Shown here: one piece after another, positions 6,658 through 41,230 of the stretch
Layout of the letters: every line of letters begins with the position of its first letter
Numbering within the stretch: the stretch's first letter is position 1
IMG/VR virus record: IMGVR_UViG_3300037883_000032
Location: 1-53,069 of that record
Length of the DNA: 53,069 nucleotides
Origin: a virus
Lineage: Duplodnaviria > Caudoviricetes
Strand: one strand, 5' to 3'
Position numbers and translations under genes: made by a program
The notes under the pieces: generated by a model
What the model was told of the DNA's origin: nothing
The model's input: only the letters and a program-made list of their open reading frames with translations
Databases searched by the model: none

Positions 6658-7238
6658 CGCCTTGTGGCCTCCTCGTAGATCAGCCGGTCGCGCTCGAGCT
6701 TCGCCGGTTCGTCGCCGCGGCCCTCGCTCGCCCAGTGGTGCATGAACCGATACGGCAAGCGAACGACGACCTCGCACCCGGCCCGCCGGCACTGGTCGGT
6801 GAACCAGTCGTCGGTGTAGTAGTGGCACTCCAGGCTCGGACCGATGTTGGCTTCCCAGTCCCGCCGGCGGCAGAACGGCACGACGCAGGTGTTCGTCGTG
6901 GGTGCCCAGTCGACGGGCACGCGGTCCCACCAGCCGCCGGCGCTCTCGATGCCGCCTTTGGGGGTGAGGATCAGCGGCGCAGGGATCTTGCACGCCCGGA
7001 GCGTCTCGAGAGCCGCGTCGTCCCACCCCTCGAGCGGCTCGAGGTCATCGGCGGTGAGGTGCAGGTACTCGCCGCCGGCTTTCGCGGCGCCATCGTTCCA
7101 CGCGATGCCGCACGTCGGGCGGCCGGGGATCACGATCAGCTCGATCTCCGCGTGCGAGCGCTCCGTGTAGGCGTTCACGCAGCGCTCCAGGTGCGCCTCG
7201 CGGCCGGGGATCGTGGGGATGACGACGGAGATCGTCAC
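6648..7238 (-). CDS. Glycosyltransferase family 2
   Basis: ISVVIPTI..R..HLERC, AWNDGA..A.GEYL...ADD, YYTDD. Confidence 0.85.
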   Translation of the reverse strand: MTISVVIPTIPGREAHLERCVNAYTERSHAEIELIVIPGRPTCGIAWNDGAAKAGGEYLHLTADDLEPLEGWDDAALETLRACKIPAPLILTPKGGIESAGGWWDRVPVDWAPTTNTCVVPFCRRRDWEANIGPSLECHYYTDDWFTDQCRRAGCEVVVRLPYRFMHHWASEGRGDEPAKLERDRLIYEEATRRCG

Positions 7239-8071
7239 AGCAGGTGGGCGAAGCGATCGCGATTCGCTAGCGCGTAGGGAGGCAGCTCGTCGTCGCCAGC
7301 GCGAAGGGCGTTGCGGTCCTGGCGGCCGAACAGGTCGCGGCCTGTCGCGAGACTGTCGCCGATCGTGCTCGGGTTGTTGTAGGCGTCGGTGTCCAGCTCG
7401 TGATGCGCTGCGCTGCGCAGCTTGTACGCGACGGCGTCGGGGCCACCCATGTAGCTCAGGTGCCAGCCGAGGCCGGGTGCGGCCTGCTCACCGATTTTCC
7501 ACGCTTCCGCTTCGCGGACCCGTTGCAAGCTGTTGTCGTAATAGCGCAGGATCGCGGGGGGAAAGAAGCTCGCGATCGGGATCATCGTGTCGTGCCAGCG
7601 CCACCGCAGCCGGTACACGAACTGCGTCATCCGCGGCCTGACGATCCGCGGCTCGAGGTTCGGCACCCACGTCGCGCAGTCCGCGACCACGTGCGGGAAC
7701 GGGATCTCGTCGAGATCGCTCAGGAGCAGCAGGTCGTCGTCCTTGAGGTCCCACAGGCCCGCTGAAAGCGCGTCGCGCTGGTGATGCTCGCGCCGCCAGC
7801 GGTCTGAGTCGCCTTCGCAGCCGATCGCGTGCGGCTCCCGGTAAACGCTCTCGCCGGCGGGCATGTCCTCCACGACGATGTAGCGGATCTTGTCCTCCCA
7901 CTGCCGGAACCGGCTCCAGTTCTCAGCCAGGTACAGCGGCTTCGGGTCGCCCGAGTAGGTGACGGGCGCCTCGGCGATGACGTGCACGTCGACGACAGGG
8001 TCTAGTTCGGCGAGACGGATCTCGAGCACGTCCAGCTCATTGAAAAACGGGGTGAGACTGTAGGTCTTCAT
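7235..8071 (-). CDS. GT17-family (GnT-III-like) beta-1,4-GlcNAc transferase
   Basis: FFNELDVLEIRL.EL..VVD...AEA..T.SG.PKPL, RE..QRDAL, SDLDEIP, GWHLSY.GG, KL.S..H.E. Confidence 0.8.
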   Translation of the reverse strand: MKTYSLTPFFNELDVLEIRLAELDPVVDVHVIAEAPVTYSGDPKPLYLAENWSRFRQWEDKIRYIVVEDMPAGESVYREPHAIGCEGDSDRWRREHHQRDALSAGLWDLKDDDLLLLSDLDEIPFPHVVADCATWVPNLEPRIVRPRMTQFVYRLRWRWHDTMIPIASFFPPAILRYYDNSLQRVREAEAWKIGEQAAPGLGWHLSYMGGPDAVAYKLRSAAHHELDTDAYNNPSTIGDSLATGRDLFGRQDRNALRAGDDELPPYALANRDRFAHLL

Positions 8072-9036
8072 CGGTGGCCTTTCCTGATGCTGCTGTGAGT
8101 GGCGTGGGACGGCTCCTCGCTCTCGGTCCAGTCACCGTTCGCGTCGAAGCGGGTGACCCACTCGAGGACCTGGGGGAGGCCCTCGCTCAGCTCGACCGTT
8201 GGTCGCCACCCGAGCCTGCGCAGCTTCTCCGTCGAGAGGCGCTTCACGACGGTCTGCGCGGCGGGCGCGGGGATCAGGTCGATCAGCTCGGTGCTCGCGC
8301 CGGCGAGCTGGCAGCAGCGCTCCGCGAGGCTCAGCATCGACAGCGGACGGTCGTCGCGGCCGATGTTGTAGATGCCGGTCCCGGGCACCCGCGCGTCGTA
8401 CCCGGCGCCCTTCTCGAGCACGAGGCGGATCCCGCGGACGGTGTCTTCGATCCAGCACCAGGACCGCTCGGCGCCGTCGTGGATCGGGATCGGCTTGCCG
8501 TGATGGGCCTGCCAGAGAATGTTGTCGAGCGCGCGGCGACCCACACCCGGCGGCGCACCCGGCCCGTACGGCATCGAGAGGCGCACGATCTTCAGCCCGT
8601 CGGGCGCGTAGAGCTGCAACGCCTCCTCGCCCCAGCGCTTCGTAAGGCCGTAAAGGTTGTGGGGCAGCACGCAGCTCGAGGTCTCGTGGCAAACACTGTC
8701 GCGGTGGTCGCCGTAAACCTCGCTGCTAGACGCGTACAGCACGGGGACGCCGCGCTGCCCGCACTCCTGCGCGACGACAGCGGTCAGCTCGGCGTTGCTG
8801 CTGATCGTGTGGCGCAGGTCACGCTCGCCAAACACGCGGCCGACCTGGGCGGCGAGATGCACGAGCGCGTCTGGTTCGGTGATGCGGTCGAGCCAGCCAG
8901 CGAGACGACCCGGTTCGCGCAGGTCGTAGCCGTGCTCGAGGATGTCGGCGCCGTGGATCGTGTGGCCGTTGTTCTTCAGCTCGCGGACCAGGTGAGCGCC
9001 GATGAAGCCGCGGTGGCCGGTGACGAGGATCTTCAC
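8068..9036 (-). CDS. NAD-dependent nucleotide-sugar epimerase/dehydratase
   Basis: ILVTGHRGFIG Rossmann motif, HLAA, ASSSEVYG, YGLTK (YxxxK), YGPG. Confidence 0.92.
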   Translation of the reverse strand: MKILVTGHRGFIGAHLVRELKNNGHTIHGADILEHGYDLREPGRLAGWLDRITEPDALVHLAAQVGRVFGERDLRHTISSNAELTAVVAQECGQRGVPVLYASSSEVYGDHRDSVCHETSSCVLPHNLYGLTKRWGEEALQLYAPDGLKIVRLSMPYGPGAPPGVGRRALDNILWQAHHGKPIPIHDGAERSWCWIEDTVRGIRLVLEKGAGYDARVPGTGIYNIGRDDRPLSMLSLAERCCQLAGASTELIDLIPAPAAQTVVKRLSTEKLRRLGWRPTVELSEGLPQVLEWVTRFDANGDWTESEEPSHATHSSIRKGHR

Positions 9037-9704
9037 GACGCCAGCTCGGCTTCCCATGCTTCGCGGCCCTCGCGTGCCAGGTCCGCTCGTTGCCCGCTCG
9101 GGCTGGAGGCGTGGCGGTGCAGGAACGTGAACAGGCCGCTGTAACCGACCTCCCAGCCCGCCTTGCGTAGGCGGTGGCAGAAGATCGCGTCCTCGTAATA
9201 CAGCCGAGGCATGTTGCTCATCCCACCCACCTGCTCGTACGCCTCGCGGCGGATGAGCATGATCGAGCCGCTGACCTGCGCGACCACCTCGAACGGCGTG
9301 ATGTACTGGCCGATGTCGGCCTGGCCGTAGGAACGTCCGCCGGCGGGACTGCCCGCCTCGAGGATCCCGGCGTGCGCGATGAAGCCGCGCGGGTCGCGCT
9401 GGCGTGGTCCTAGCACGCCGAGGCGGGGATGCTCGTGGAATAGCTCGAGCAGCGGCCCGATTCCCTCCTCGGGGAACTCCACGTCAGCGTTGCACGCGAT
9501 CAGGATCGGGGTCTTCGCGAGGTCGAGGTCGCGCGCGAGCGCGGCGGCGTAGCCGATGTTCGTCGGCAGGTTCTCGACGTAGGTCGTGTGGACCGCCTTG
9601 AGCCATGTTGGTCGGCCGATGCTCTCCCGGCAGCGCGCGGCCAGCTCGGTGGTCTTGTAGCTCACGATCGCGACGGTCGCGGTGAGCGGCGTGTGCTCGT
9701 TCAC
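9033..9704 (-). CDS. Glycosyltransferase family 2 (WbbL-like)
   Basis: VAIVSY, NIGYAAA, NADV, VSGSIMLIRREAYEQVGG, LYYEDA.FC.R...AGW. Confidence 0.88.
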   Translation of the reverse strand: MNEHTPLTATVAIVSYKTTELAARCRESIGRPTWLKAVHTTYVENLPTNIGYAAALARDLDLAKTPILIACNADVEFPEEGIGPLLELFHEHPRLGVLGPRQRDPRGFIAHAGILEAGSPAGGRSYGQADIGQYITPFEVVAQVSGSIMLIRREAYEQVGGMSNMPRLYYEDAIFCHRLRKAGWEVGYSGLFTFLHRHASSPSGQRADLAREGREAWEAELAS

Positions 9705-10474
9705 AGCGCGTACCGGTCCCAGACGTGGCGGGCGTACGTGCCCGGCAGCCAGCCAGCGGTGTAGCCGGCGAGCTTCAGGTTGATCCCGAAGCCGATGTCC
9801 TCCCCCGACTGGTGCCAGCGGTAGCGGACCTTCGAGAACACATAGCGTGGCATAAGGATCGCGCCCATCGGGATGTCGATCGGTTGGACGCCGCCGGCTT
9901 CGCGGGTCGCCTCATCGACTTCAGCGCGTTTCCATGCCCACGTGCCGAGGTCTTGCGGGCGGCCCGCTTCGAGCGCCTCGCGGGGGTGGTGACGCTCGTT
10001 GCCGAGGATCCCGGCGTTGCACGTCCATGTGGCCGTTGGGTGAAAGCTGAGGCGCGGCGCGACCACGTCGACGTTCTCAGCGTCGCAGCCCGGCGGCAGC
10101 GTTGCGATAGCCGCCAGGAGCCGCTCGATCGTGCGGGCGTCCTCGAGCATGATGTCGGTGTCGAGCGACAGCAGGTGTGTCGCGTCGGTGCAGACGGTCG
10201 CCTCGGCGAGCATCAGGTTCCGCAGTCGCGTGAGGGTGTGGAACCGCTCGTTGTCCTGGCGGTCATGCGGTGGCGTGCTCTCGTGGTGGCGGATCGTCGG
10301 GATCTCCCAGTCCTGCGCACAGTCACGGATCGCCTTCCATGTGTCGTCGCCGCGCTGGCCACCGTGGATCAGCAGCACCTGGTCGGGCTTGACGGTCTGC
10401 TGCGCCAGGTACCGGTACCAGTGGGGGAGCGCCCAGTCTCTATCAGCCACCGGCGCCGCTACGACGAGCTTCAT
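9701..10474 (-). CDS. GT-A fold glycosyltransferase
   Basis: VVAAPV.DR, LRN, LSLDTDI (DxD), GEDIGF. Confidence 0.75.
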   Translation of the reverse strand: MKLVVAAPVADRDWALPHWYRYLAQQTVKPDQVLLIHGGQRGDDTWKAIRDCAQDWEIPTIRHHESTPPHDRQDNERFHTLTRLRNLMLAEATVCTDATHLLSLDTDIMLEDARTIERLLAAIATLPPGCDAENVDVVAPRLSFHPTATWTCNAGILGNERHHPREALEAGRPQDLGTWAWKRAEVDEATREAGGVQPIDIPMGAILMPRYVFSKVRYRWHQSGEDIGFGINLKLAGYTAGWLPGTYARHVWDRYAL

Positions 10475-11330: not shown

Positions 11331-11494
11331 GCGCGCACCCTCTCAACGGCAGCGGATAGAACGCTTGCGGAGGCCCCGCGGGGGGACCGCGGGGCACTCG
11401 AATCGGACCAGTCGGGCAACCCCCACGAGACCCAGCGGCGAAACTCCACGGCGGCGGGCCAGAGCAGGAGAGGGGCGATCAGGACACGCCTACA

Positions 11495-11523
11495 AGTGTC
11501 GCACGCTGCGACACGTTTGTCAA
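11495..11523 (-). promoter_or_regulatory. Sigma70-type promoter TTGACA-17-GACACT overlapping palindrome GTGTCGCA-CGC-TGCGACAC
   Basis: Consensus -35 at 11518-11523, 17-bp spacer, perfect 8-bp inverted repeat at 11496-11514. Confidence 0.7.
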
Positions 11524-11528
11524 GGGCG

Positions 11529-11645
11529 TCACAGGACCCAACGGTGCTCGCGCCAGTCCTCCCATTTGGCCCGCACTAGCCAGTACCAAGGCAGCAGCGC
11601 GATCGCGCCGAGGATCACGCTGCCGATCCAGCCAACGATCGTCAT
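11529..11645 (-). CDS. Small membrane protein (38 aa)
   Basis: MTIVGWIGSVILGAIALLPWYWLV hydrophobic segment; ATGA coupling. Confidence 0.55.
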   Translation of the reverse strand: MTIVGWIGSVILGAIALLPWYWLVRAKWEDWREHRWVL

Positions 11646-20170: not shown

Positions 20171-20274
20171 GCGGTTTCCACCAGCACGACCGCAGTGCAG
20201 ATGATGGCCGCGACCGCGATGCAGATGATCGTGAAGCAGATCCAGCCGAACTTCGTGTCGTCGAGGTCGTTCAT
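20167..20274 (-). CDS. Small single-TM protein (possible lysis accessory)
   Basis: 35 aa hydrophobic FGWICFTIICIAVAAIICTAVVLV, coupled to the lysin stop. Confidence 0.5.
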   Translation of the reverse strand: MNDLDDTKFGWICFTIICIAVAAIICTAVVLVETA

Positions 20275-21251
20275 GCCGCGAGTTCCCGCTTGACTTGCTG
20301 GCCTTCGCGCTCCCACTTCAGGCACCGCGGTCCGCGGTGTTCGTGGTTGTGCTCCCGCCGGCGGCAGCCGTACACCACGAGCACACGACGCAGGGTGCGC
20401 TGACGAGCGACAAGCGCGCGCTTGTCGACGGGGCGCTTGCGGACGATGCTGGTGAGGCCTTCGTCGCGGCTCAGGTCGCTCGCGCCGATCCCCGGGATCG
20501 AGTGGGGGAACGCGCCGATTTCTCCGTCGGTGTGCTGCCACGCGACGCGGTGCCCACGACACAGGAAGCACCCGGGCGAGCTGCCGTACGCGGCGTCCCA
20601 CTCGGGGTCGTTCGGGCGGGCGCCACCGGGATAGGTGCCGCTGCTGGAGTAGTCGGGGCTGGGCAGCCCGGTCTTCCGTTCGACCTCGCGACTGAAGGCA
20701 CCCATGCAGCCGGATGGCAGGGGGACCTCGCCGTCGCCGATCAGCGGCCCGCTGTCGAGACCGCCCGGGATGAGACTGAGGGCGTAGTCGGCCTCGCTCG
20801 CGCAGTTCGACCAGGGCCGCTCGAAGAAGTAGACGGCGTGCCAGATGTGCAGTTCGCGGACTTCGCGGAGGTAGCGCAGGAAGACCGTGTCGTGGTGGCT
20901 GCCGTCGGCGACGCGGATCACGACACCGCAGATGTGGGAGCGGGCTTCGCGCCAGTTGATGTGCGGCTGGAATTCGCTCACGTCGGGGACCTGGCAGCCG
21001 CCCGTCGCCGTCGGTGCGACTGGCGAGAGCTGTGATGCGGTCGCGCGCGCCGGCGTGCAGACACCCATCACGCCGTGGCCGGCGTTCGGCACGCATGAGT
21101 GCGGGGCCGCTTCGAGCGGCGCCGTGGTGGGCGCGGGAACGGTCCTGGTGATGGTCCGCGTCGAGGTGGTGCTGGAGTCGATCGCGGCGCCGATGATGCC
21201 CGCGCCGATGGCTGTAGCGATGAGCGGTGCGACTAGCTGGCTGCGCTTCAC
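20271..21251 (-). CDS. GH25 muramidase (lysin) with N-terminal signal/TM segment
   Basis: PDVSEFQ..INW, VYFF, DGE (DxE), W.AAY, AWQHTD, DLS; hydrophobic N-terminus plus Thr/Pro linker; GGGAGG SD. Confidence 0.85.
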   Translation of the reverse strand: MKRSQLVAPLIATAIGAGIIGAAIDSSTTSTRTITRTVPAPTTAPLEAAPHSCVPNAGHGVMGVCTPARATASQLSPVAPTATGGCQVPDVSEFQPHINWREARSHICGVVIRVADGSHHDTVFLRYLREVRELHIWHAVYFFERPWSNCASEADYALSLIPGGLDSGPLIGDGEVPLPSGCMGAFSREVERKTGLPSPDYSSSGTYPGGARPNDPEWDAAYGSSPGCFLCRGHRVAWQHTDGEIGAFPHSIPGIGASDLSRDEGLTSIVRKRPVDKRALVARQRTLRRVLVVYGCRRREHNHEHRGPRCLKWEREGQQVKRELAA

Positions 21252-21304
21252 GGAATGCCTCCCCGCAGTGGTTTCGAGGGAGGCTTTCAAGCCCGTCGGA
21301 CGGT

Positions 21305-24250: not shown

Positions 24251-26452
24251 TCACCCGTCCCCGTTGCGGCCGTGAGGGTGAATGGCACGCGCGAGCCTGC
24301 GGATATTGACCCTGCTCTCGGCACGGTACTGCTCGCCCGCGTCCACATACTCGGGGTCATCGGGCCTGCGGCGTGGGATGCGAGCGCCGGCGCGCGCGGC
24401 CTCGCGGATCGCGACCTGCACGATCTCGACGAGCGTCGGGTCGGCCTCGCGCATCTGCCCGCCGCCGCCGGAGTCCCGGCGAATGTTCGCCTTGCCGGCC
24501 TGCGTCATGACGTTCTCGTCGCCCGGGATGCCCGAGCGGCCGGGTGCGCGTGGGCCTGGCGGCGTACCCGGTGCACCACCGCCCGCTTCCGCGCCTGGGG
24601 GTGCGGCTTCGCCCGGACCGGGCATCAGCAGGCCTGGCGGCTGGTCCTCGCTCGAGCCGGCCTTCGTCGGGTCGAGCTTCGGCGACTGGCGGTACTGGGC
24701 GTTCACCATCGGCCGGCGGATCGTGCCGTCGCCCTGCTTCGGCTTCGTTTTCTCGATCGGTTTGCCGTCCGGGCCGAGAACCTGTGGGCCGCTGTCGTCC
24801 GGCTCGTCCTCCTGGGCGTTGGTGAACTCCTCCGCGATTTTCTTCTGCTCGTCGTCCCAGTCGAACGTCTCGATGTCGAGCTGGCGGGCGCCCATCGCGG
24901 CGGCCGTGTCCTTCGAGATCCAGTCCATGCTCTCGGCGAACGCGATGTCCTTCAAGGCGGCGGAGCGTTCCTCGACGGCGATCGCGGGGAAGATGAACTC
25001 GATCTCGGCGTCCTCGCCAGTGAGGTTCGCGGCGGCGAACACGCGGCGCGCCATGTCCTGAAGGATGCGCTGCGAGAACCGCTGGCGGCGCTCGAAGCGC
25101 TTCTGGCCCGGCTCGGTCGCGACGAGCGCGCCGGCGCGCGCGGTGCTGCCGCCGTGCGCGGCGGTCCACAGCCACTGGCGGCTCACACCGGTGCCGAGGC
25201 AGCACATCTCGACCAGCTCGTCGACGCTGGTGTCGCTCGTGGCCGTCGAGCTGGTGAATTGGAATGCGTCCAGCTCCACCTGGTCGTTGTGCCCGATAAT
25301 CGAGCCAGCTTCCGGGGTCTTGCCTTGCGGGAACAGCTCGTTGCGGACGGTCGCTACGTCGCCGGCGTGACCTTTGACCATCAGGTTGAACACCATCCGG
25401 GCTTCCATGTCGGACCGGATGACCTTGCTCGTCAGGAGGTCTTGGAGGCGCTTGAGGTAGCCCAGGCTGGGGAACAGGTCTGAGCGTCCGCGGACCTCCT
25501 GGCTGCGCACGTTGAGGCGGTAGTGGTCGACCTCCTCCGGCGGGATCTGCCGGATCGTGTACCGCGTGACCGCGCCCGGGTCGGTCGGGCCGGTCGGCGC
25601 CTGGTCGCCGGCGGGCGGCGCGAATAGCTGCGAGCGCTCCTGCTCCTGCTGGTGGTAGAAGTAGACGGTCTCGCGGTCCTCCTGGTCGGTCACGATCTCG
25701 TAGATCCCGGCCGGGTCGAGCGACCGGACGACGAGCGGGCAGCCGTACTCGGGGTCGGGCGGCACGTCGAAGTAGCGCAGGAACAGCTCGCCGTAGCTGA
25801 ACGCGTCGCCGAGGATTTCCTCGAGGCGCTCGTCCATCTTGTTGCGTTTCGCGAACGCGTCCCACACCTTCTGGCCCGCCTCGGTTTTCGCGACGGCTTG
25901 CACGCCCCGGCCGATCACGAACTCCGTGGCGATTTCGATCGCGCGGTGAGCGATCGGGTTGTGGTGGAACGCCTCGAACGCCTTCGCGTTCTGCGCGAAG
26001 TAGTCAGCCCAGTAGAGCTGCCGCGTCGCGGGGCCGGGGATCAACGGAATGTAGGGGCTGGTGACACCACCGCCGAACGGGAGGGTGGTATTGACGCCGT
26101 AGCTCCACCAGTCGAGCGGTTCGGCCTCGCGGAACTTGACCTTGTGCAGCTCGCCGTAGTGCAAGCCCGCGAGCTTCGGCTCAGCCTCGCGCAGGCGCCT
26201 CACGGTCGCCTGGATCGCGCGGCGGTCGTCGTAGCGCTTGATGCGATGCTCCACGAGACGACCCTCACGGAAGCGGCCCTCCCAGAAGCGGCCGGAGAGC
26301 TGCCAGTCGCCCGTCGGCGCAGCGTCCGGGCAGGGCGGCAGTTCCTTCGCGATGTCGTACTGGTACTGGTCCGCCGGTGGCCTGACGAGGAAAGCGTGCG
26401 CGCGGCCGGGGTCGCGGTCGCGGCGCGGCTGGCTCGGGCTTCTACCTGGCAT
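24251..26452 (-). CDS. Portal protein with N- and C-terminal extensions
   Basis: NP.A.R.IE...FV.GRG, YGELFLR, RGRSDL...L, KRFERRQ; position between terL and MuF. Confidence 0.88.
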   Translation of the reverse strand: MPGRSPSQPRRDRDPGRAHAFLVRPPADQYQYDIAKELPPCPDAAPTGDWQLSGRFWEGRFREGRLVEHRIKRYDDRRAIQATVRRLREAEPKLAGLHYGELHKVKFREAEPLDWWSYGVNTTLPFGGGVTSPYIPLIPGPATRQLYWADYFAQNAKAFEAFHHNPIAHRAIEIATEFVIGRGVQAVAKTEAGQKVWDAFAKRNKMDERLEEILGDAFSYGELFLRYFDVPPDPEYGCPLVVRSLDPAGIYEIVTDQEDRETVYFYHQQEQERSQLFAPPAGDQAPTGPTDPGAVTRYTIRQIPPEEVDHYRLNVRSQEVRGRSDLFPSLGYLKRLQDLLTSKVIRSDMEARMVFNLMVKGHAGDVATVRNELFPQGKTPEAGSIIGHNDQVELDAFQFTSSTATSDTSVDELVEMCCLGTGVSRQWLWTAAHGGSTARAGALVATEPGQKRFERRQRFSQRILQDMARRVFAAANLTGEDAEIEFIFPAIAVEERSAALKDIAFAESMDWISKDTAAAMGARQLDIETFDWDDEQKKIAEEFTNAQEDEPDDSGPQVLGPDGKPIEKTKPKQGDGTIRRPMVNAQYRQSPKLDPTKAGSSEDQPPGLLMPGPGEAAPPGAEAGGGAPGTPPGPRAPGRSGIPGDENVMTQAGKANIRRDSGGGGQMREADPTLVEIVQVAIREAARAGARIPRRRPDDPEYVDAGEQYRAESRVNIRRLARAIHPHGRNGDG

Positions 26453-27692: not shown

Positions 27693-28145
27693 TCAGTGAA
27701 CCTGCGCGGCCTCCCGGCCAGGCGCCGGCTCAACCGCTGACTCGTCCGGCTCCTCCTCGTGTGACGCGTCGTCGTGCGTCTCGACGCGCTGGAGGTGAGA
27801 GACGCTGCCGCCCTCCTCGCCGTCGCCTTCGACGACCCTGCCGAAGATGTCAGCCTCGCGCAGCAGGACGATCTCGACCAGGTCGACCTTTAGCTCGGTC
27901 CCGCCGTATTTGCTGTATAGGACCTCGTCGCCGACCTCGAGCGGCTGGTAGCCGTGGGTGATCTTGAGACGCTCGCGTTCCTGCGCGGCCTCGACACCGA
28001 CCATCGGTCCCATCGCGATGATCCTGCCGCGGTGCGGCTTCTCGCGGGCCTGCTCGGGCAGGATGATCCCGGACTTCGTGACCAGCTCGTCGCTGATCGG
28101 CTCGACGACTACGCGGTCGCCCATCGGTTCTAGCGTGGCGCTCAT
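27693..28145 (-). CDS. groES: Co-chaperonin GroES (Cpn10) with acidic C-terminal tail
   Basis: LEPMGDRVVVEP...TKSGIILPEQAREKP.RG.IIAMGP...LEVGDEVLYSKYGGTELKVD...LLREADI. Confidence 0.93.
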   Translation of the reverse strand: MSATLEPMGDRVVVEPISDELVTKSGIILPEQAREKPHRGRIIAMGPMVGVEAAQERERLKITHGYQPLEVGDEVLYSKYGGTELKVDLVEIVLLREADIFGRVVEGDGEEGGSVSHLQRVETHDDASHEEEPDESAVEPAPGREAAQVH

Positions 28146-28425: not shown

Positions 28426-28788
28426 TCAGCCCTTGGCGGCTTCCTCAGCCGCCGTGAGATGTGTTGCCGCTTCGCCGAGATGCCCGGCGATCGCGGACGC
28501 TTCGCCCTGCAAGGCGGTGATCTCGGCGTCCGTGAGCGGCTGGCCCGCACGGAGACCTTCGATCACTTTCTGGAGGTCGGCGAACTTCGTGCCGGCGGTC
28601 GCGACGACACCTTCGAGGGTGCCCTCCTCGGTGGCGAGGGTGGCGATCTCGTTCTTCAGTTCTTCAGCGGTTTTGTCCATGCTTCCGACCTTTCGTGAGA
28701 GGGTGTTCAGCACCCGGGTGACCGGCGACAGCCGTGCGTCAAGCAGATCGCCGATCGCCTCGAGGTCCTCCTGGTCCAGGGTTGCCAT
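28426..28788 (-). CDS. Hypothetical coiled-coil protein
   Basis: 120 aa; TAGGGT 8 nt upstream of ATG. Confidence 0.65.
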   Translation of the reverse strand: MATLDQEDLEAIGDLLDARLSPVTRVLNTLSRKVGSMDKTAEELKNEIATLATEEGTLEGVVATAGTKFADLQKVIEGLRAGQPLTDAEITALQGEASAIAGHLGEAATHLTAAEEAAKG

Positions 28789-28839
28789 TCCCCGGCACCC
28801 TACCGGCCGCCGGCGAGCGCAACCGGCGGGTTTCTGTCG

Positions 28840-29076
28840 CTAATTGCGACTTCCGGTGATGGACAGCCGAGAGCAGTCGCACTCCAGCGACGGCATGCGG
28901 TCGTCGATCTCCAGCGTCACGCGCAGGCTGCGCGGACGCACGTCGTACGCGAGCACCTTGGCAAGCACCGGCTCATCGCGACCCTCGAGCGCGACCGGTA
29001 GCCGGTCGGGTAGCTCGATGTCGTCAGCGAACCGGTTAAACGGCCCGGACGGGATTTCGAGGCTGATGACGGACAC
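28840..29076 (-). CDS. Hypothetical protein
   Basis: 78 aa; TAGAAT 7 nt upstream of GTG. Confidence 0.5.
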   Translation of the reverse strand: MSVISLEIPSGPFNRFADDIELPDRLPVALEGRDEPVLAKVLAYDVRPRSLRVTLEIDDRMPSLECDCSRLSITGSRN

Positions 29077-29127
29077 GGCCCATATTCTAGGGCGCGCCAG
29101 GCGGAAAAGTGTCGCACGCTGCGAAGG

Positions 29128-29223
29128 TGCGCACGACGGGAATCGAACCCGCGACCGCCGGCTTGAAAGACCGGAACTCTTTGCTCACCCGAGAGTGAAC
29201 GTTGACCACTGAGCTACGTGCGC
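29128..29223 (-). tRNA. tRNA-Glu(UUC) with a hairpin insertion in the D-loop; CCA not encoded
   Basis: 7-bp acceptor GCGCACG/CGTGCGC, D-stem GCTC/GAGT, anticodon arm CCGGT-CTTTCAA-GCCGG, T arm GCGGG-TTCGATT-CCCGT; TAGGAT 6 nt upstream. Confidence 0.85.
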
Positions 29224-29326
29224 CCGGTCATCCTACAACGACAACGAGCGTCCCGAAGGACGCCCGTGTGCCGTGGTGGCAGCGGCCCTTCAAGCCGCCG
29301 CAGTCTAGCGTGCCGGCCCGGCGCTC

Positions 29327-29413
29327 TCAGCGCCGAGCCGTGCGCGGTTCAAGGATGACCGCGGCCACAATGACCACGGCAAGAGCAACCCCCAAGATCA
29401 GTATGTATCGCAT
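29327..29413 (-). CDS. Small membrane peptide (28 aa), leaderless
   Basis: MRYILILGVALAVVIVAAVILEPRTARR; TACGCT 6 nt upstream. Confidence 0.5.
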   Translation of the reverse strand: MRYILILGVALAVVIVAAVILEPRTARR

Positions 29414-29433
29414 CGGCAGAGCGTAGCCGAGCG

Positions 29434-29736
29434 CTACGACAGCTTGATGTTGTGCTGGCGGACGGTGACGACCATGCCCTCGATCGTCTTCTCCGGGAAC
29501 GCGAGCGTCACCCGGCCGCGGGCCTGCGCGATGACCTGGCCGTCAGCGTCGGTCAGCACGACACCGACTTCCTCGCCCTGGTCGAGCTGCGGCAGGCCTT
29601 CCGAGGCGTCCATCGTCTCGAGTGCACCCGAGACTTTGATCGAGGACACCAGCGGACGTGCGACCTCACCGCGGTCGCCCCACGGGGGGGGGCCGCCCTT
29701 GTACGCGTCGAAGCTGAGCTGGCCTACTCGCTGCAT
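29434..29736 (-). CDS. Hypothetical protein
   Basis: 100 aa, GGGGAGG SD. Confidence 0.6.
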   Translation of the reverse strand: MQRVGQLSFDAYKGGPPPWGDRGEVARPLVSSIKVSGALETMDASEGLPQLDQGEEVGVVLTDADGQVIAQARGRVTLAFPEKTIEGMVVTVRQHNIKLS

Positions 29737-29801
29737 GGAGTGCCTCCCCTGGTGGTGGTTTCGCGGGGACGCTACGCGCGAGCGCGGACGGCCAGGTTGC
29801 G

Positions 29802-31262
29802 CTACCCGAATTCGCTCTTGCTGTATTTCCGGCCGCCCGTCGCGCTGCCCTTCGGCTTGCCCGTCTTCGCCCCAGCCGGGCTGCCCAGCACCGGGAACTG
29901 GTTGATGAGGAGGTACCCGAGCGTGTCGAGCGGATGCTCGTAGTAGCCGTCCTTCTCGTACGTCTCCTGGAGGATCGGCTCGTTCCCGCTGCTGCCCATC
30001 GGCGGGCCAACCTTCTTCCACTGGGCTTGCTCGAGCGCCTCGATCAGGAACTCGCACGAGCTGTGAATGTGAAGACGGTCGTCCTTCAGGAGCTGCTTGA
30101 TGAGCGTCACACGGTCCTTCGGTGCGACTTCCTCGGCGAGCACCCGGATCCCGAACTGTTCGACGGTGAAATGATCGGACTGTGTCGCGACGCTCGTCTG
30201 TGCCTTGCCGGCCGGGTCGCAGCCCGCCGGCGCGTCCTGGGTCTTTACGCCGAGGTCGAGGTCCATCACGACGACCTGCTCCATCATGTCTTTCGTCGTC
30301 GTCTTCTCGGCGTGCAGTTCGGCGTACACGAACACGTGGCGGCGCTGCTCGATCGACGCCCACAGGTGAACGCCGTGGTGGTAGCCGAAGTCGATGCCGC
30401 GCACTTGCGGCCAGTTCGCGTTCGGGTCTCTGGTCGCGTTCGTGACGTGCCGTTTGCGGTCGAACTCCTCGCGGAACACGCTCGCACCCGGGAGCTGGAA
30501 AGCGTCGAGCCACTCGGCGGGATACTCCTGGAGCAGGTCACGCTCGGTCGCCATTTCTTCGCGCTTGCGCTGATACCAGATCTCGTCGCGGTCGGGGTGC
30601 GCGTCCCACGGGATGAACACCGGGAAGAACCGGCTGGTGCCACTGATCGCGCGGCGCCATTCCGCGGCGTACGGGTTGTGAAACCCGACGGCAGTCGACA
30701 CCCCGATGAGCCTCCCGCCGGCGCTCAAGGTCGGCAGCAGGCTCGTCAGGATCTTCTGAACGCCGCGGATCTTCGCCCACTCATCGACGAGCACGAGCTG
30801 CGCCGTCGCGCCGGACCCGGCGAATTCGGTCGCGGCGAGGCTCCAGATCTTGCCGCCGTTCGCGAACTCGAGTTTGTCGACCACGTCCTTCGTCTTGACC
30901 GGGCGCAGCTCGTGCGGGAGCCGTTTGTGCATGAACCGCACGCGATCGAGCAGCTCGACGGCCTCGCGAAGGCCACGGTTGAGGATCAGCGCGGTCATGC
31001 CCAGATTGCAGCTCGTGTGCCACAGCATGTACGCGAGCGCCAGCCAGGACAGGCCGAGCTGGCGGGCCTTCAGGAAGATGATGCGGTCGTGGTCCTCGAT
31101 GTCGTGCAGCGCGTCGACCTGGAAATCCCAGAGGTCGAACGGGATGGGTGGGCCGCCCTCGCCGTCTTCGATCTGGCAGTGCGGGATGAAGTGCTCCGGG
31201 AGCAGCCGGGCCTTCGCGATCTGCCGCGGGGTGAGCGGCCGTTTAGCTCCCGGCGGCAGCAC
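29802..31262 (-). CDS. terL: Terminase large subunit
   Basis: LWDFQ, KARQLGLS (Walker A), LVLVDEWA (Walker B), VSTA, QEYP, GIDFG nuclease motif, HPLDTLGY; start could be 31262 or 31310. Confidence 0.93.
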   Translation of the reverse strand: MLPPGAKRPLTPRQIAKARLLPEHFIPHCQIEDGEGGPPIPFDLWDFQVDALHDIEDHDRIIFLKARQLGLSWLALAYMLWHTSCNLGMTALILNRGLREAVELLDRVRFMHKRLPHELRPVKTKDVVDKLEFANGGKIWSLAATEFAGSGATAQLVLVDEWAKIRGVQKILTSLLPTLSAGGRLIGVSTAVGFHNPYAAEWRRAISGTSRFFPVFIPWDAHPDRDEIWYQRKREEMATERDLLQEYPAEWLDAFQLPGASVFREEFDRKRHVTNATRDPNANWPQVRGIDFGYHHGVHLWASIEQRRHVFVYAELHAEKTTTKDMMEQVVVMDLDLGVKTQDAPAGCDPAGKAQTSVATQSDHFTVEQFGIRVLAEEVAPKDRVTLIKQLLKDDRLHIHSSCEFLIEALEQAQWKKVGPPMGSSGNEPILQETYEKDGYYEHPLDTLGYLLINQFPVLGSPAGAKTGKPKGSATGGRKYSKSEFG

Positions 31263-32067
31263 CCGCCCGCTCCAGCGCCCACGCGAGCGGCGGGCGTTTC
31301 TCCGTCGCACCGCCGAGCTGCGGCTGCCGGTCTTCCTGGCGGGCGCGCTCGAGCACGGTCTCGAGGACTTCGTCGCAGCGCTTCGCGAGGTCCCGTAGCG
31401 GCCAGTGGCGGTGTTCGTGCACGCCGAGGTTCGCCTGCGCCATGCGGCTCACTCCGACCGCTAGGAACGCGTCGATCGTGAGTGCCGGCTCGATCGCCCA
31501 CCGTGACTCGAACGGCAGGTGGACCGCTAGCTCGCGTGTCATGGCGGTCTCGCCGGCGAGCGGCTGCTCGAGCCATGCCAGCTCGGGGAAGTACGCGCGC
31601 ATGATGGGACGCCCGAACAGGTGGTTGAGCCGGCCGCCGCCGTCGGGGTCGCCGCCGAGGGGACGCTTGTAGTAGCCCTTCACGAAATCCGCGTCGCCCT
31701 TCAGGATCGGCTCGCACATCGCGAACACGTAATGCCGCTGGATCGATCGGCTGTCAGCGTCGAGGAACAGGACGATGTCGCCAGTGAGAACGGATAGGGC
31801 GCGCCACATCGCGTCGCCCTTCCCGAGTACCGGTCCCATGCTCGGCATCAGGGTGCTCTGCCGGTGAACCTCGGCGCCTTGGCTCGCCGCGATGTCGGCC
31901 GTCCAGTCGGTTGACTCGTCGACGACGACGACCTGGTGAATGTAGCCGTCCTCGCGCATCTTGATGAGCGGCGCGAGGGCCGCTCCGATCGTGGACTCCT
32001 CGTCGACGGCGGGGAAGCACACGCTGATCGTTTTGCCGCTGGTGAGAAACTCCTCGTGTCGTTGCAT
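31243..32067 (-). CDS. Glucosyl-3-phosphoglycerate synthase-like glycosyltransferase (GT81-like)
   Basis: ISV..PA.DEE.TIG, GKGDAMWRAL, LFLDAD, FVKGYY.RP, GGGRL, FPEL..L.QPLAGE, H.H..L..L. Confidence 0.85.
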   Translation of the reverse strand: MQRHEEFLTSGKTISVCFPAVDEESTIGAALAPLIKMREDGYIHQVVVVDESTDWTADIAASQGAEVHRQSTLMPSMGPVLGKGDAMWRALSVLTGDIVLFLDADSRSIQRHYVFAMCEPILKGDADFVKGYYKRPLGGDPDGGGRLNHLFGRPIMRAYFPELAWLEQPLAGETAMTRELAVHLPFESRWAIEPALTIDAFLAVGVSRMAQANLGVHEHRHWPLRDLAKRCDEVLETVLERARQEDRQPQLGGATEKRPPLAWALERAGAAAGS

Positions 32068-40447: not shown

Positions 40448-41230
40448 ATGACCGTCGCTGACCTGGTAGCACCCGCCCGCGCGCACGTCTACGGCAAGCG
40501 CTGGCCGCACCCCGGCATGTCCTTTCCGCAAGCCGACACGAGCACCCTCAAGATCCTGACAGAGGTCGACCCGCGCTCATGGATGTGGCCCGCGCTCAAC
40601 CAGCTCCAGATCGGCTCGTGCACCGCGAACGCCACCAGCCGGTGCTTCCGCGCCGACGCACACATGGACGGCCACGACTGCGGCGAGCTGTCCCGCCGCT
40701 GGATCTACCACTTCGAGATGGCGATCGAGGGCACCCTCGGCCAGGGCGACGTGGGCGCCATCGGCCACGACGCGTTCACCGTCGCGAAGCACGGCATCCC
40801 CGACGAGGCGCTCTACCCCTACAGCGACAACATCGAAGACTTCGAGATCAAACCGCCCGACGTTGAGCCGCGCGCATACCGGCTCGGCAAACCCGTCCGG
40901 TCGGTCCCTCAGACCCTCGAAGCGATCAAGCAAGTCCTCTCGAACCGGCAGACGATCCCGCTCGGCTTCACGGTCTACGAATCCTTCGAGGACACGTCGT
41001 GGTGGGCGTCGGGTGAGATGCCGATCCCGGCACCCGGCGAGGAAATCCTCGGCGGCCACGAGGTCCTCGCCTGCGGCTACCTGAAGGAATACCCGCACCA
41101 CATCCTGATGCTGAACTCGTGGGACACGAGCTTCGGGATCGGCGGGTACTTTTTGATGCCGCTCGCGTACGTGCTCGACCGCTCCCGCGTGAGCGACCTG
41201 CGCACGATCCAGCGCCCCGCCGGCAAGTGA
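40448..41230 (+). CDS. Papain-like C1 cysteine peptidase
   Basis: VDPR, NQ..IGSCTANA (Gln/Cys), LS..WIY, GGHEV (His), LNSW...FG.GGYF (Asn); AAGGAGG SD. Confidence 0.9.
   Translation: MTVADLVAPARAHVYGKRWPHPGMSFPQADTSTLKILTEVDPRSWMWPALNQLQIGSCTANATSRCFRADAHMDGHDCGELSRRWIYHFEMAIEGTLGQGDVGAIGHDAFTVAKHGIPDEALYPYSDNIEDFEIKPPDVEPRAYRLGKPVRSVPQTLEAIKQVLSNRQTIPLGFTVYESFEDTSWWASGEMPIPAPGEEILGGHEVLACGYLKEYPHHILMLNSWDTSFGIGGYFLMPLAYVLDRSRVSDLRTIQRPAGK

Follow-up and report, generated by a model that had tools for sequence, protein, structure and literature searches.

A single cloverleaf is commonly assumed for bacterial elongator tRNAs. Class II tRNAs (Leu, Ser, Tyr and Sec) have five helices; their extra stem-loop branches off between the anticodon arm and the T arm and is retained in the mature molecule that takes part in translation. 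In some archaea, short inserts in the D-loop of a tRNA gene are known as non-canonical introns, which are flanked by a bulge-helix-bulge (BHB) motif and spliced out. Special non-ribosomal tRNAs are also kept by bacteria. The subject of this report is a tRNA gene with anticodon UUC at positions 29128-29223 (- strand) of IMG/VR virus record IMGVR_UViG_3300037883_000032, an uncultured viral fragment of 53,069 bases (CheckV completeness ~66%) that was analysed over its whole length and is called the window here. Like a class II tRNA it has five helices, but its extra arm leaves the D-loop at 20a/20b, on the opposite side of the core. The gene is probably functional and the phage's copy of a five-armed tRNA-Glu(UUC) that is specific to a lineage: some Solirubrobacterales (soil Actinomycetota) appear to miss the canonical tRNA-Glu(UUC) and to have in its place a 96-nt tRNA, with a non-Glu class-I scaffold and a 7-bp hairpin, that would read GAA and carry Glu.

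The 96-nt tRNA shares with canonical bacterial tRNA-Glu(UUC), copies of which occur in the genomes G016, G116 and G124, the UUC anticodon with A37, the G1-C72 pair, the 7/5 acceptor/T branch, G18 G19 and the TTCGA T-loop, and it fills the UUC slot of host genomes and phage tRNA arrays. It differs from the canonical molecule in its 4-bp GCTC/GAGY D-stem, its 5-nt variable loop and the 18-nt hairpin in its D-loop. According to the available part of a review of bacterial identity elements, the tRNA-Glu set consists of U34 U35 C36 A37, U11-A24, U13-G22:A46 and the lack of residue 47, and the tRNA-Arg set of A20, C35, U/G36 and A/G73, with A20 as the main determinant for ArgRS (PMC9976931). A second source, also available in part, describes an extra D-loop base of tRNA-Glu, U20B, that flips out and makes GatCAB reject this tRNA (PMC2811023). 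As far as these sources go, U20B of tRNA-Glu and A20 of tRNA-Arg lie at the same molecular site as the arm of the hairpin tRNA, but they are single nucleotides, whereas the hairpin tRNA has a whole 7-bp helix there. Compared with other phage-encoded tRNAs, which have been linked to codon supply or counter-defence, the gene is likewise a host-like tRNA for a codon commoner in the phage, but unlike them it copies a host-specific, non-canonical architecture. An arm of this kind in the D-loop was not found in a search of full-text literature that did not cover supplementary files, and the available part of a review of non-canonical tRNAs makes no mention of one (PMC7609411). The novelty seems to lie in a fifth arm at a new position, in a seemingly essential decoder that is conserved in a clade and copied by phages, in what is still a tRNA.

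Structure of the gene and selection on its fifth helix

The architecture described in the initial annotation, a 96-nt tRNA(UUC) with four paired arms, a 31-nt D-loop and a 7-bp hairpin at 29183-29200, holds in all coordinates and lengths. Its parts are as follows.

29128-29223 (-): tRNA gene of 96 nt, anticodon UUC, five helices (Rfam RF00005 and family model R1)
29217-29223 (-): 5' strand of the acceptor stem, GCGCACG, pairing with 29129-29135 (CGTGCGC); 100% of cells paired across the family
29180-29210 (-): D-loop of 31 nt with G18 G19 retained; insert after GGU, in the 20a/20b variable pocket
29183-29200 (-): extra hairpin (fifth arm) of 18 nt, 7 bp with a CTCG loop, GTTCACT / GGTGAGC
29158-29174 (-): anticodon arm, stem CCGGT/GCCGG, loop CTTTCAA, anticodon UUC at 29165-29167; the stem covaries in the family
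29136-29152 (-): T arm GCGGG, TTCGATT, CCCGT; 100% of cells paired across the family
29128-29135 (-): acceptor-stem 3' strand and discriminator A; CCT comes next and CCA is not encoded

The tRNA model RF00005 was the sole Rfam match in the window and aligned end to end (model 1-71) with 60.6 bits (gathering score 29, E 1e-10), so that the gene scores as a cloverleaf tRNA, and the family covariance model R1 gave 105.3 bits over its full length. In the cmscan alignment a 25-nt insertion follows the GGU of the D-loop. The D-stem is GCTC/GAGT with one G-U pair, two of the seven pairs in the extra hairpin are also G-U, and the insert alone folds at -6.5 kcal/mol in RNAfold. The elements that build the elbow are present and invariant in the family, namely AGTGGT (G18 G19), GTTCGATTC, and G15 with the final C of the 5-nt variable loop CGGTC. 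This short variable loop and the 7/5 branch (not 8/4, 9/3, 8/5 or 9/4) place the molecule outside class II tRNAs, tRNA-Sec and allo-tRNAs. The CCT noted earlier after the gene was read directly, and an encoded CCA is absent from most family members. ARAGORN, which had been proposed as a check, called no tRNA gene in the window, and elsewhere it types the hairpin tRNA as '???', Pro(ggg) or Ala(ggc); genomes of the clade would therefore appear to be without a GAA decoder, which is an annotation gap.

Viral relatives were found by an exact search with the 3' half of the tRNA, which recovered two contigs (L006 and L007) with the same ends and the same anticodon loop, and with D-loop inserts of different sequence in which the hairpin fold is kept; an exact pattern built on the anticodon arm of the window's tRNA, used first, had given no matches. 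Two broader pattern scans of the viral collection returned 99 and 31 stretches, and the distinct viral tRNAs with the five-armed architecture number 14, the window's included. Since the other 13 viral contigs have no proteins in common with the window, except for one weak match, and range from 39 to 69% in GC (guanine plus cytosine) content, the hairpin tRNA is spread over unrelated phages. Among cultured-phage records, 786 match the 3' half of the tRNA only, and none of them covers at least 80% of the query.

The 14 distinct viral tRNAs (alignment A1) have changes on both sides at six of the seven pairs of the extra helix, 89.8% of the helix cells are paired, and none of 500 shuffles reached the covariation observed over the whole structure. 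A second alignment (A2) was restricted to members with an 18-nt insert (n=21): eight of the viral sequences in A1, and 13 host sequences picked from 33 distinct ones so as to differ at five or more positions. In A2, both-sided changes were again seen at six of seven pairs, the extra helix is 98.0% paired, and the whole structure is 99.0% paired, versus 35-49% when the 3' partners are slid by one to three columns. The loop sequences of the hairpins are variable and many are of the UNCG type. The extra helix covaries and is under selection, as had been suggested from its intact stems, and the homologues with the insert, for which a search had been recommended, form a family shared by viruses and genomes labelled Solirubrobacterales. 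These results exclude random decay, an att remnant or an assembly artefact. Although ARAGORN makes no call and the contig is an uncultured viral fragment, it is barely credible that the gene is a pseudo-tRNA, an attP remnant or a product of assembly, when five helices are intact, compensatory changes extend over 14 sequences from viruses and 33 distinct ones from hosts, independent assemblies share the architecture, and the gene is full-length in a window where no tyrosine integrase was found.

Other unusual tRNA genes are present on the viral contigs. Directly upstream of the hairpin tRNA stand tRNA-like genes at L006:1003-1125 (123 nt) and L109:9631-9719 (89 nt), both on high-GC contigs; one of the two has inserts in the D-loop and the anticodon loop, and in the other the anticodon-loop insert is structured and the T-loop is odd. 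The same GTAGCTCAGTGGT start, with insertions of 20-60 nt in or after the anticodon arm, is seen in dozens of further viral tRNA genes (within L008-L104); several of them recur on different contigs (e.g. L025, L035, L039, L049, L100 and L103), and they could be small introns or further expanded tRNAs. A different D-loop hairpin is found in L028, which is identical to L045.

The hairpin tRNA and GAA decoding in Solirubrobacterales

A scan for the D-arm pattern in one genome per prokaryote species gave at least 120 loci, and among the 80 matches listed, from which the taxonomy was taken, all are metagenome-assembled genomes (MAGs) labelled Solirubrobacterales, Solirubrobacteraceae, Conexibacteraceae, Thermoleophilia or 'Actinomycetes', several of them being complete chromosomes. 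In 120 of these at least 120 host copies, the anticodon loop is CTTTCAA in 114, CTTTCCA (with C at position 37) in four and another sequence in two, and the insert is 18 nt long in 116. The surrounding genes code for a polysaccharide deacetylase, an alpha/beta hydrolase, a transketolase and a transaldolase, with synteny in two chromosomes; the host copies are chromosomal and stand in a housekeeping context. One of these hosts, G001, is a complete chromosome of 3.57 Mb. The hairpin tRNA is confined to certain clades: a full-length match to R1 was found in one of 151 genomes sampled from its class, which is G001 itself, matches were found in two of 41 sampled from its family, and the D-arm pattern is present in 21 of 401 genomes of the family, as a single copy in 20 of the 21. 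The glutamyl-tRNA synthetase (GluRS) of hairpin-bearing genomes from other lineages is 62-65% identical to that of G001, and that of two hairpin-less family members 71-72%, so the distribution of the hairpin tRNA is patchy and loss or transfer has occurred.

All 46 Rfam tRNA matches of G001 could be typed. Glu(CUC) is present, the canonical tRNA-Glu(UUC) is absent, and the tRNAs with anticodon UUC are the 96-nt molecule and an odd, shorter one:

G001:C1:419040-419110: 71-nt tRNA with anticodon UUC (L288), without G18 G19 and with T-loop CTCGTAC

This 71-nt tRNA was found in G001 only among five genomes searched, being absent from G352, which has the 96-nt tRNA, and it may be special-purpose or decaying. 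In G540, a complete chromosome from another lineage, 38 of 49 tRNA matches were typed; the remaining 11, with 82-90 nt, have the size of class II tRNAs, and one Rfam match below the cut-off gave no gene. Here Glu(CUC) is also present, no canonical Glu(UUC) was found and the 96-nt tRNA is the only one with anticodon UUC. The meaning of GAA was examined with 516 open reading frames (ORFs) from 120 host loci, paired by blastp at 55-92% identity and a length of 150 residues or more (5076 pairs). GAA aligned with Glu codons in 72.1% of cases (43.2% GAA and 28.9% GAG) and with Arg codons in 2.7%, and GAG of the same ortholog pairs aligned with Glu in 71.4%. The same question asked of rpoB met with just 4 and 7 GAA codons in a poor alignment. 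GAA is Glu in the hosts and, with the hairpin tRNA as the sole GAA reader of G540, we infer that GluRS charges it; the 96-nt tRNA would thus carry Glu and be used on the ribosome to read GAA. Furthermore, G001 has a single gene of the GluRS family and so no GlnRS, and it presumably depends on the indirect GatCAB route to Gln-tRNA.

It had also been suggested that the gene codes for a tRNA-like RNA with a non-translational role; such an RNA might be a regulator, or serve a tRNA-dependent biosynthetic enzyme as its substrate. Bacteria do keep non-ribosomal tRNAs, and the scaffold of the 96-nt molecule is not Glu-like. However, a chromosome in which it is the sole UUC tRNA still uses GAA as Glu, the host loci have no conserved biosynthetic neighbour, and phage arrays place the hairpin tRNA in the UUC slot, all of which makes this role highly unlikely.

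Some other tRNAs of the two complete chromosomes are also atypical. In G001, a 73-nt class-I tRNA with anticodon UAA (L259; G001:C1:878214-878286) lies beside a normal 83-nt tRNA-Leu(UAA), and the anticodon UAC (Val) is absent among its 46 typed tRNAs. In G540, a 75-nt tRNA (L420; G540:C1:2020750-2020890) is reported by ARAGORN as '???' with a four-base anticodon call (gacg), and its loop is seemingly enlarged. The clade may have further remodelled tRNAs for A-ending codons.

RNA data are consistent with an arm that stays in the mature molecule. Fourteen soil metatranscriptome runs from 13 studies contain six of six sampled words of the host tRNA, and contigs of four runs (four studies) were aligned to the G001 locus with 60-nt flanks. 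These contigs span ~1496-1598, including the hairpin, with 0-1 differences, and are unlike the genome beyond. In a 133-nt contig (depth 31.9) the genome's C at 1597 is followed by a C and then by a run of A, which reads as discriminator, CCA and poly(A) tail. Among the contigs aligned from the four RNA runs, none skips just the hairpin, and the evidence for a mature tRNA that bears the hairpin is good, though short of final. In run X3 (L269:1441-1656), a 330-nt contig has 154 unrelated letters between the first 22 and the last 23 nt of the tRNA; it may come from a relative in which the insert is much larger, or be chimeric.

The same contigs bear on the proposal that the insert is a small intron removed before the tRNA is used. 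Its position recalls the archaeal non-canonical introns, with which it shares a short insert in the D-loop of the gene, but inspection found no BHB motif (that is, no two 3-nt bulges with a 4-bp helix), the 7-bp helix being flanked by 10 nt 5' and 3 nt 3', and the insert is present in contigs of four RNA libraries. With 18-25 nt in the D-loop and no Rfam intron family matched, the insert does not resemble a group I intron either, which would run to hundreds of nt, contain a group I core and usually interrupt the anticodon loop. In addition, stable UNCG-type loops and a fixed length suit a structural arm, and the window encodes a GH25 endolysin of bacterial type and GroES. The chance that the insert is spliced out is therefore remote.

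As judged from its sequence, the 96-nt tRNA is built on a non-Glu class-I scaffold, in which the Glu-like features are the anticodon loop, with U34 U35 C36 A37, and G1-C72 only. The acceptor stem of the host copies is that of tRNA-Arg(CCG) and tRNA-Arg(ACG) of G001, and the best matches of R1 elsewhere are tRNA-Arg (12 UCU and 3 ACG among 15 fetched). An origin of the scaffold from tRNA-Arg was considered and dropped, since plain identity over 78 positions favours Arg (57) no more than Lys (59) or Met (57). When set against the tRNA-Arg elements in the available part of PMC9976931, the molecule has A73 but U and C at positions 35 and 36, and at position 20 it has a U that is followed by the hairpin.

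The fact that only pairing and length are conserved in the arm, and not its loop sequence, suggests a steric or architectural role over a sequence-specific binding site. From its position, the hairpin would point away from the L-shape at its outer corner, with the elbow still kept by G18/G19 and the T-loop. Our leading guess, by analogy with the partly available accounts of A20 and U20B, is that the arm works sterically, as an identity element or an anti-determinant, at the site used by ArgRS and for rejection by GatCAB: it could bar both enzymes from a scaffold put to a new use, or offer GluRS a hold on the D-arm. It is possible, though we hold it tentatively, that this is a natural five-armed elongator tRNA in which, in part of the Solirubrobacterales, a remodelled scaffold is the sole GAA reader and the rigid helix a working identity module. 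If so, this would explain why phages of these hosts need the arm in their own copies if tRNA(UUC) is to be charged and put to use, and it would mean that a helix standing out beside the elbow is accepted by ribosomes, RNase P, EF-Tu and the CCA-adding enzyme alike.

A rather unlikely explanation is that the hairpin is a tolerated expansion without function, frozen at a solvent-exposed loop site, with its pairing kept because an unpaired insert would be harmful. The loop sequence is free and pairing alone is kept; 20a/20b is the length-variable site of the D-loop, where an extra base flips out of the fold according to the available part of PMC2811023. Furthermore, no indel in GluRS accompanies the hairpin between nine hairpin-bearing and six hairpin-less genomes (G153 left out), and the one column that separates the two groups (residue Q359 of G001) is too weak to interpret. 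On the other hand, the length is fixed at 18 nt in 116 of 120 host copies, the arm is retained in phage contigs that span 39-69% GC and in arrays of otherwise ordinary tRNAs, and a hairpin-less UUC version of the same scaffold was found in none of 10 related genomes.

A conserved D-loop helix in what seems to be the sole reader of GAA would show that a bulky arm next to the elbow is tolerated in translation and that a remodelled scaffold can take the place of the tRNA of one amino acid, and its phage copies would show that phages track host-specific features of tRNAs. The hairpin tRNA could also serve as a natural chassis for tagged or orthogonal tRNAs and as a marker in host prediction for phages of this uncultured soil clade.

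Phage copies of the hairpin tRNA

Four of the viral contigs carry the hairpin tRNA within arrays that include an ordinary Glu(CUC), with 28 tRNAs in L077, 29 in L116, 11 in L105 and 4 in L126. In all four the only UUC tRNAs are hairpin forms, which ARAGORN misses and R1 finds, and L116 has a second, more divergent one (801-892) with D-stem GCTG/CAGC and a different hairpin. Because these arrays mirror the tRNA set of the host, it can be argued that the UUC slot in these hosts must be filled by the hairpin architecture.

In the window, GAA makes up 144 of 656 Glu codons (22%) over 34 ORFs, and in the host 37 of 273 (13.6%) over nine ORFs, or ~13% over all host loci. Phages rely on the charging and decoding machinery of the host and would for this reason copy the same architecture. 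The phage most likely raises the supply of a single-copy host tRNA for a codon that is commoner in the phage than in the host; codon supply would then be the benefit to the phage, and supplementation of a scarce tRNA is its simplest form.

The phage tRNA is 77/96 identical to that of G001 and, outside the hairpin, at best 71/78 identical to those of other host lineages; the differences lie in the acceptor stem and the hairpin, and the anticodon loop CTTTCAA is identical. These differences, and the position of the gene as sole tRNA on the contig, would suit a spare that replaces or decoys a host tRNA(UUC) hit by an anticodon nuclease or by some other defence aimed at tRNAs, with small changes giving resistance, and phage tRNAs that counter tRNA-cleaving defences are on record in the available part of PMC12409363. 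Evasion or decoying of nucleases had been offered as the reason for the arm, yet the chromosomal tRNA(UUC) of the presumed hosts also has it, so that the hairpin cannot distinguish phage from host, and the anticodon loop is the same in both. A RelA-like toxin of the phage itself had been named as another target, and a six-frame Pfam search of the window (a contig ~66% complete) found no RelA_SpoT domain (PF04607) and no other nuclease or toxin partner was found. We regard an anti-defence function as improbable; it can coexist with codon supply.

Several points weigh against a functional phage copy of a Glu-carrying tRNA. Glu charging and ribosomal use are themselves inferred, and the D-arm does not provide the E. 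coli Glu identity elements given in the available part of PMC9976931, since it has C11-G24 and C13-G22 and the variable loop has 5 nt. The 71-nt UUC tRNA of G001 could share in GAA decoding. By BLAST, a canonical Glu tRNA matched Glu(CUC) alone in seven of seven hairpin-bearing genomes and both Glu(CUC) and Glu(UUC) in three of three hairpin-less ones, but these absences are weak, because the same query missed the divergent Glu-like tRNA(UUC) of G155, a hairpin-less family member that was fully typed, and in G540-G547 matched Lys(UUU) only and no Glu tRNA. A BLAST query of the G155 type, run with no positive control, matched in none of 15 hairpin-bearing genomes. Viral members with the same scaffold and arm but other anticodons exist, namely CCU (L012, identical to L022), UGC (L044, which has G3-C70 and not the Ala pair) and UUU (L060, whose insert is 32 nt long); a strict tie between the arm and Glu is therefore absent. 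The contigs from RNA libraries may stem from contaminating DNA and cannot show the ends of the molecule, and contigs from other species would likewise stop fitting at the borders of the tRNA. On the side of the phage, the host was assigned from tRNA likeness and GC content only, the difference in codon use is modest, and expression of the phage copy is presumed, with no promoter called. A search with the large terminase (TerL) for prophage relatives in 101 genomes of the host order gave none; it had no positive control and carries no weight.

Surroundings of the gene on the phage contig

The contig has a GC content of ~68% and nearly all of its genes are on the - strand. The tRNA gene, the only one on the contig, lies between the terminase and portal genes, in the following surroundings.

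29802-31310: large terminase (TerL), on the upstream side of the tRNA
29230-29235 (-): TAGGAT, a weak -10-like hexamer 6 nt upstream of the tRNA
29107-29124 (-): short palindromic hairpin directly 3' of the tRNA, an 18-nt exact repeat with a second copy at 11494-11511
27693-28145: homologue of the GroES co-chaperonin, downstream of the tRNA
24251-26452: portal, downstream of the tRNA
20271-21290: GH25 endolysin of bacterial type, which indicates a bacterial host

A -10 box had been reported for the gene and the TAGGAT hexamer is there, but a consensus scan of 28700-29900 called no promoter at it, and found no promoter-like or terminator-like sites in this region. The search for phage relatives by TerL returned three distant viral loci, none with the hairpin tRNA, and blastn with the 1.2 kb surrounding the tRNA gave no match among cultured phages.

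The 18-nt repeat folds into a stem TCGCA, a loop GCG and a stem TGCGA. The hairpin is longer at the 11.5-kb copy, which comes after an ORF ending near 11530 and adjoins a TTGACA; the repeat may be a terminator or an operator, and the scan makes no terminator call at the copy beside the tRNA. Between the terminase gene and the tRNA, at 29246-29265 (-), an 8-bp hairpin with a TTCG loop is followed by GTTGTCGTTGT and looks like a terminator, again with no call from the scan. The contig also carries auxiliary genes (7235-10474, 27693-28145, 31243-32067 and 40448-41230), which comprise three glycosyltransferase-like ORFs, an NAD-dependent epimerase/dehydratase, GroES and a papain-family protease.

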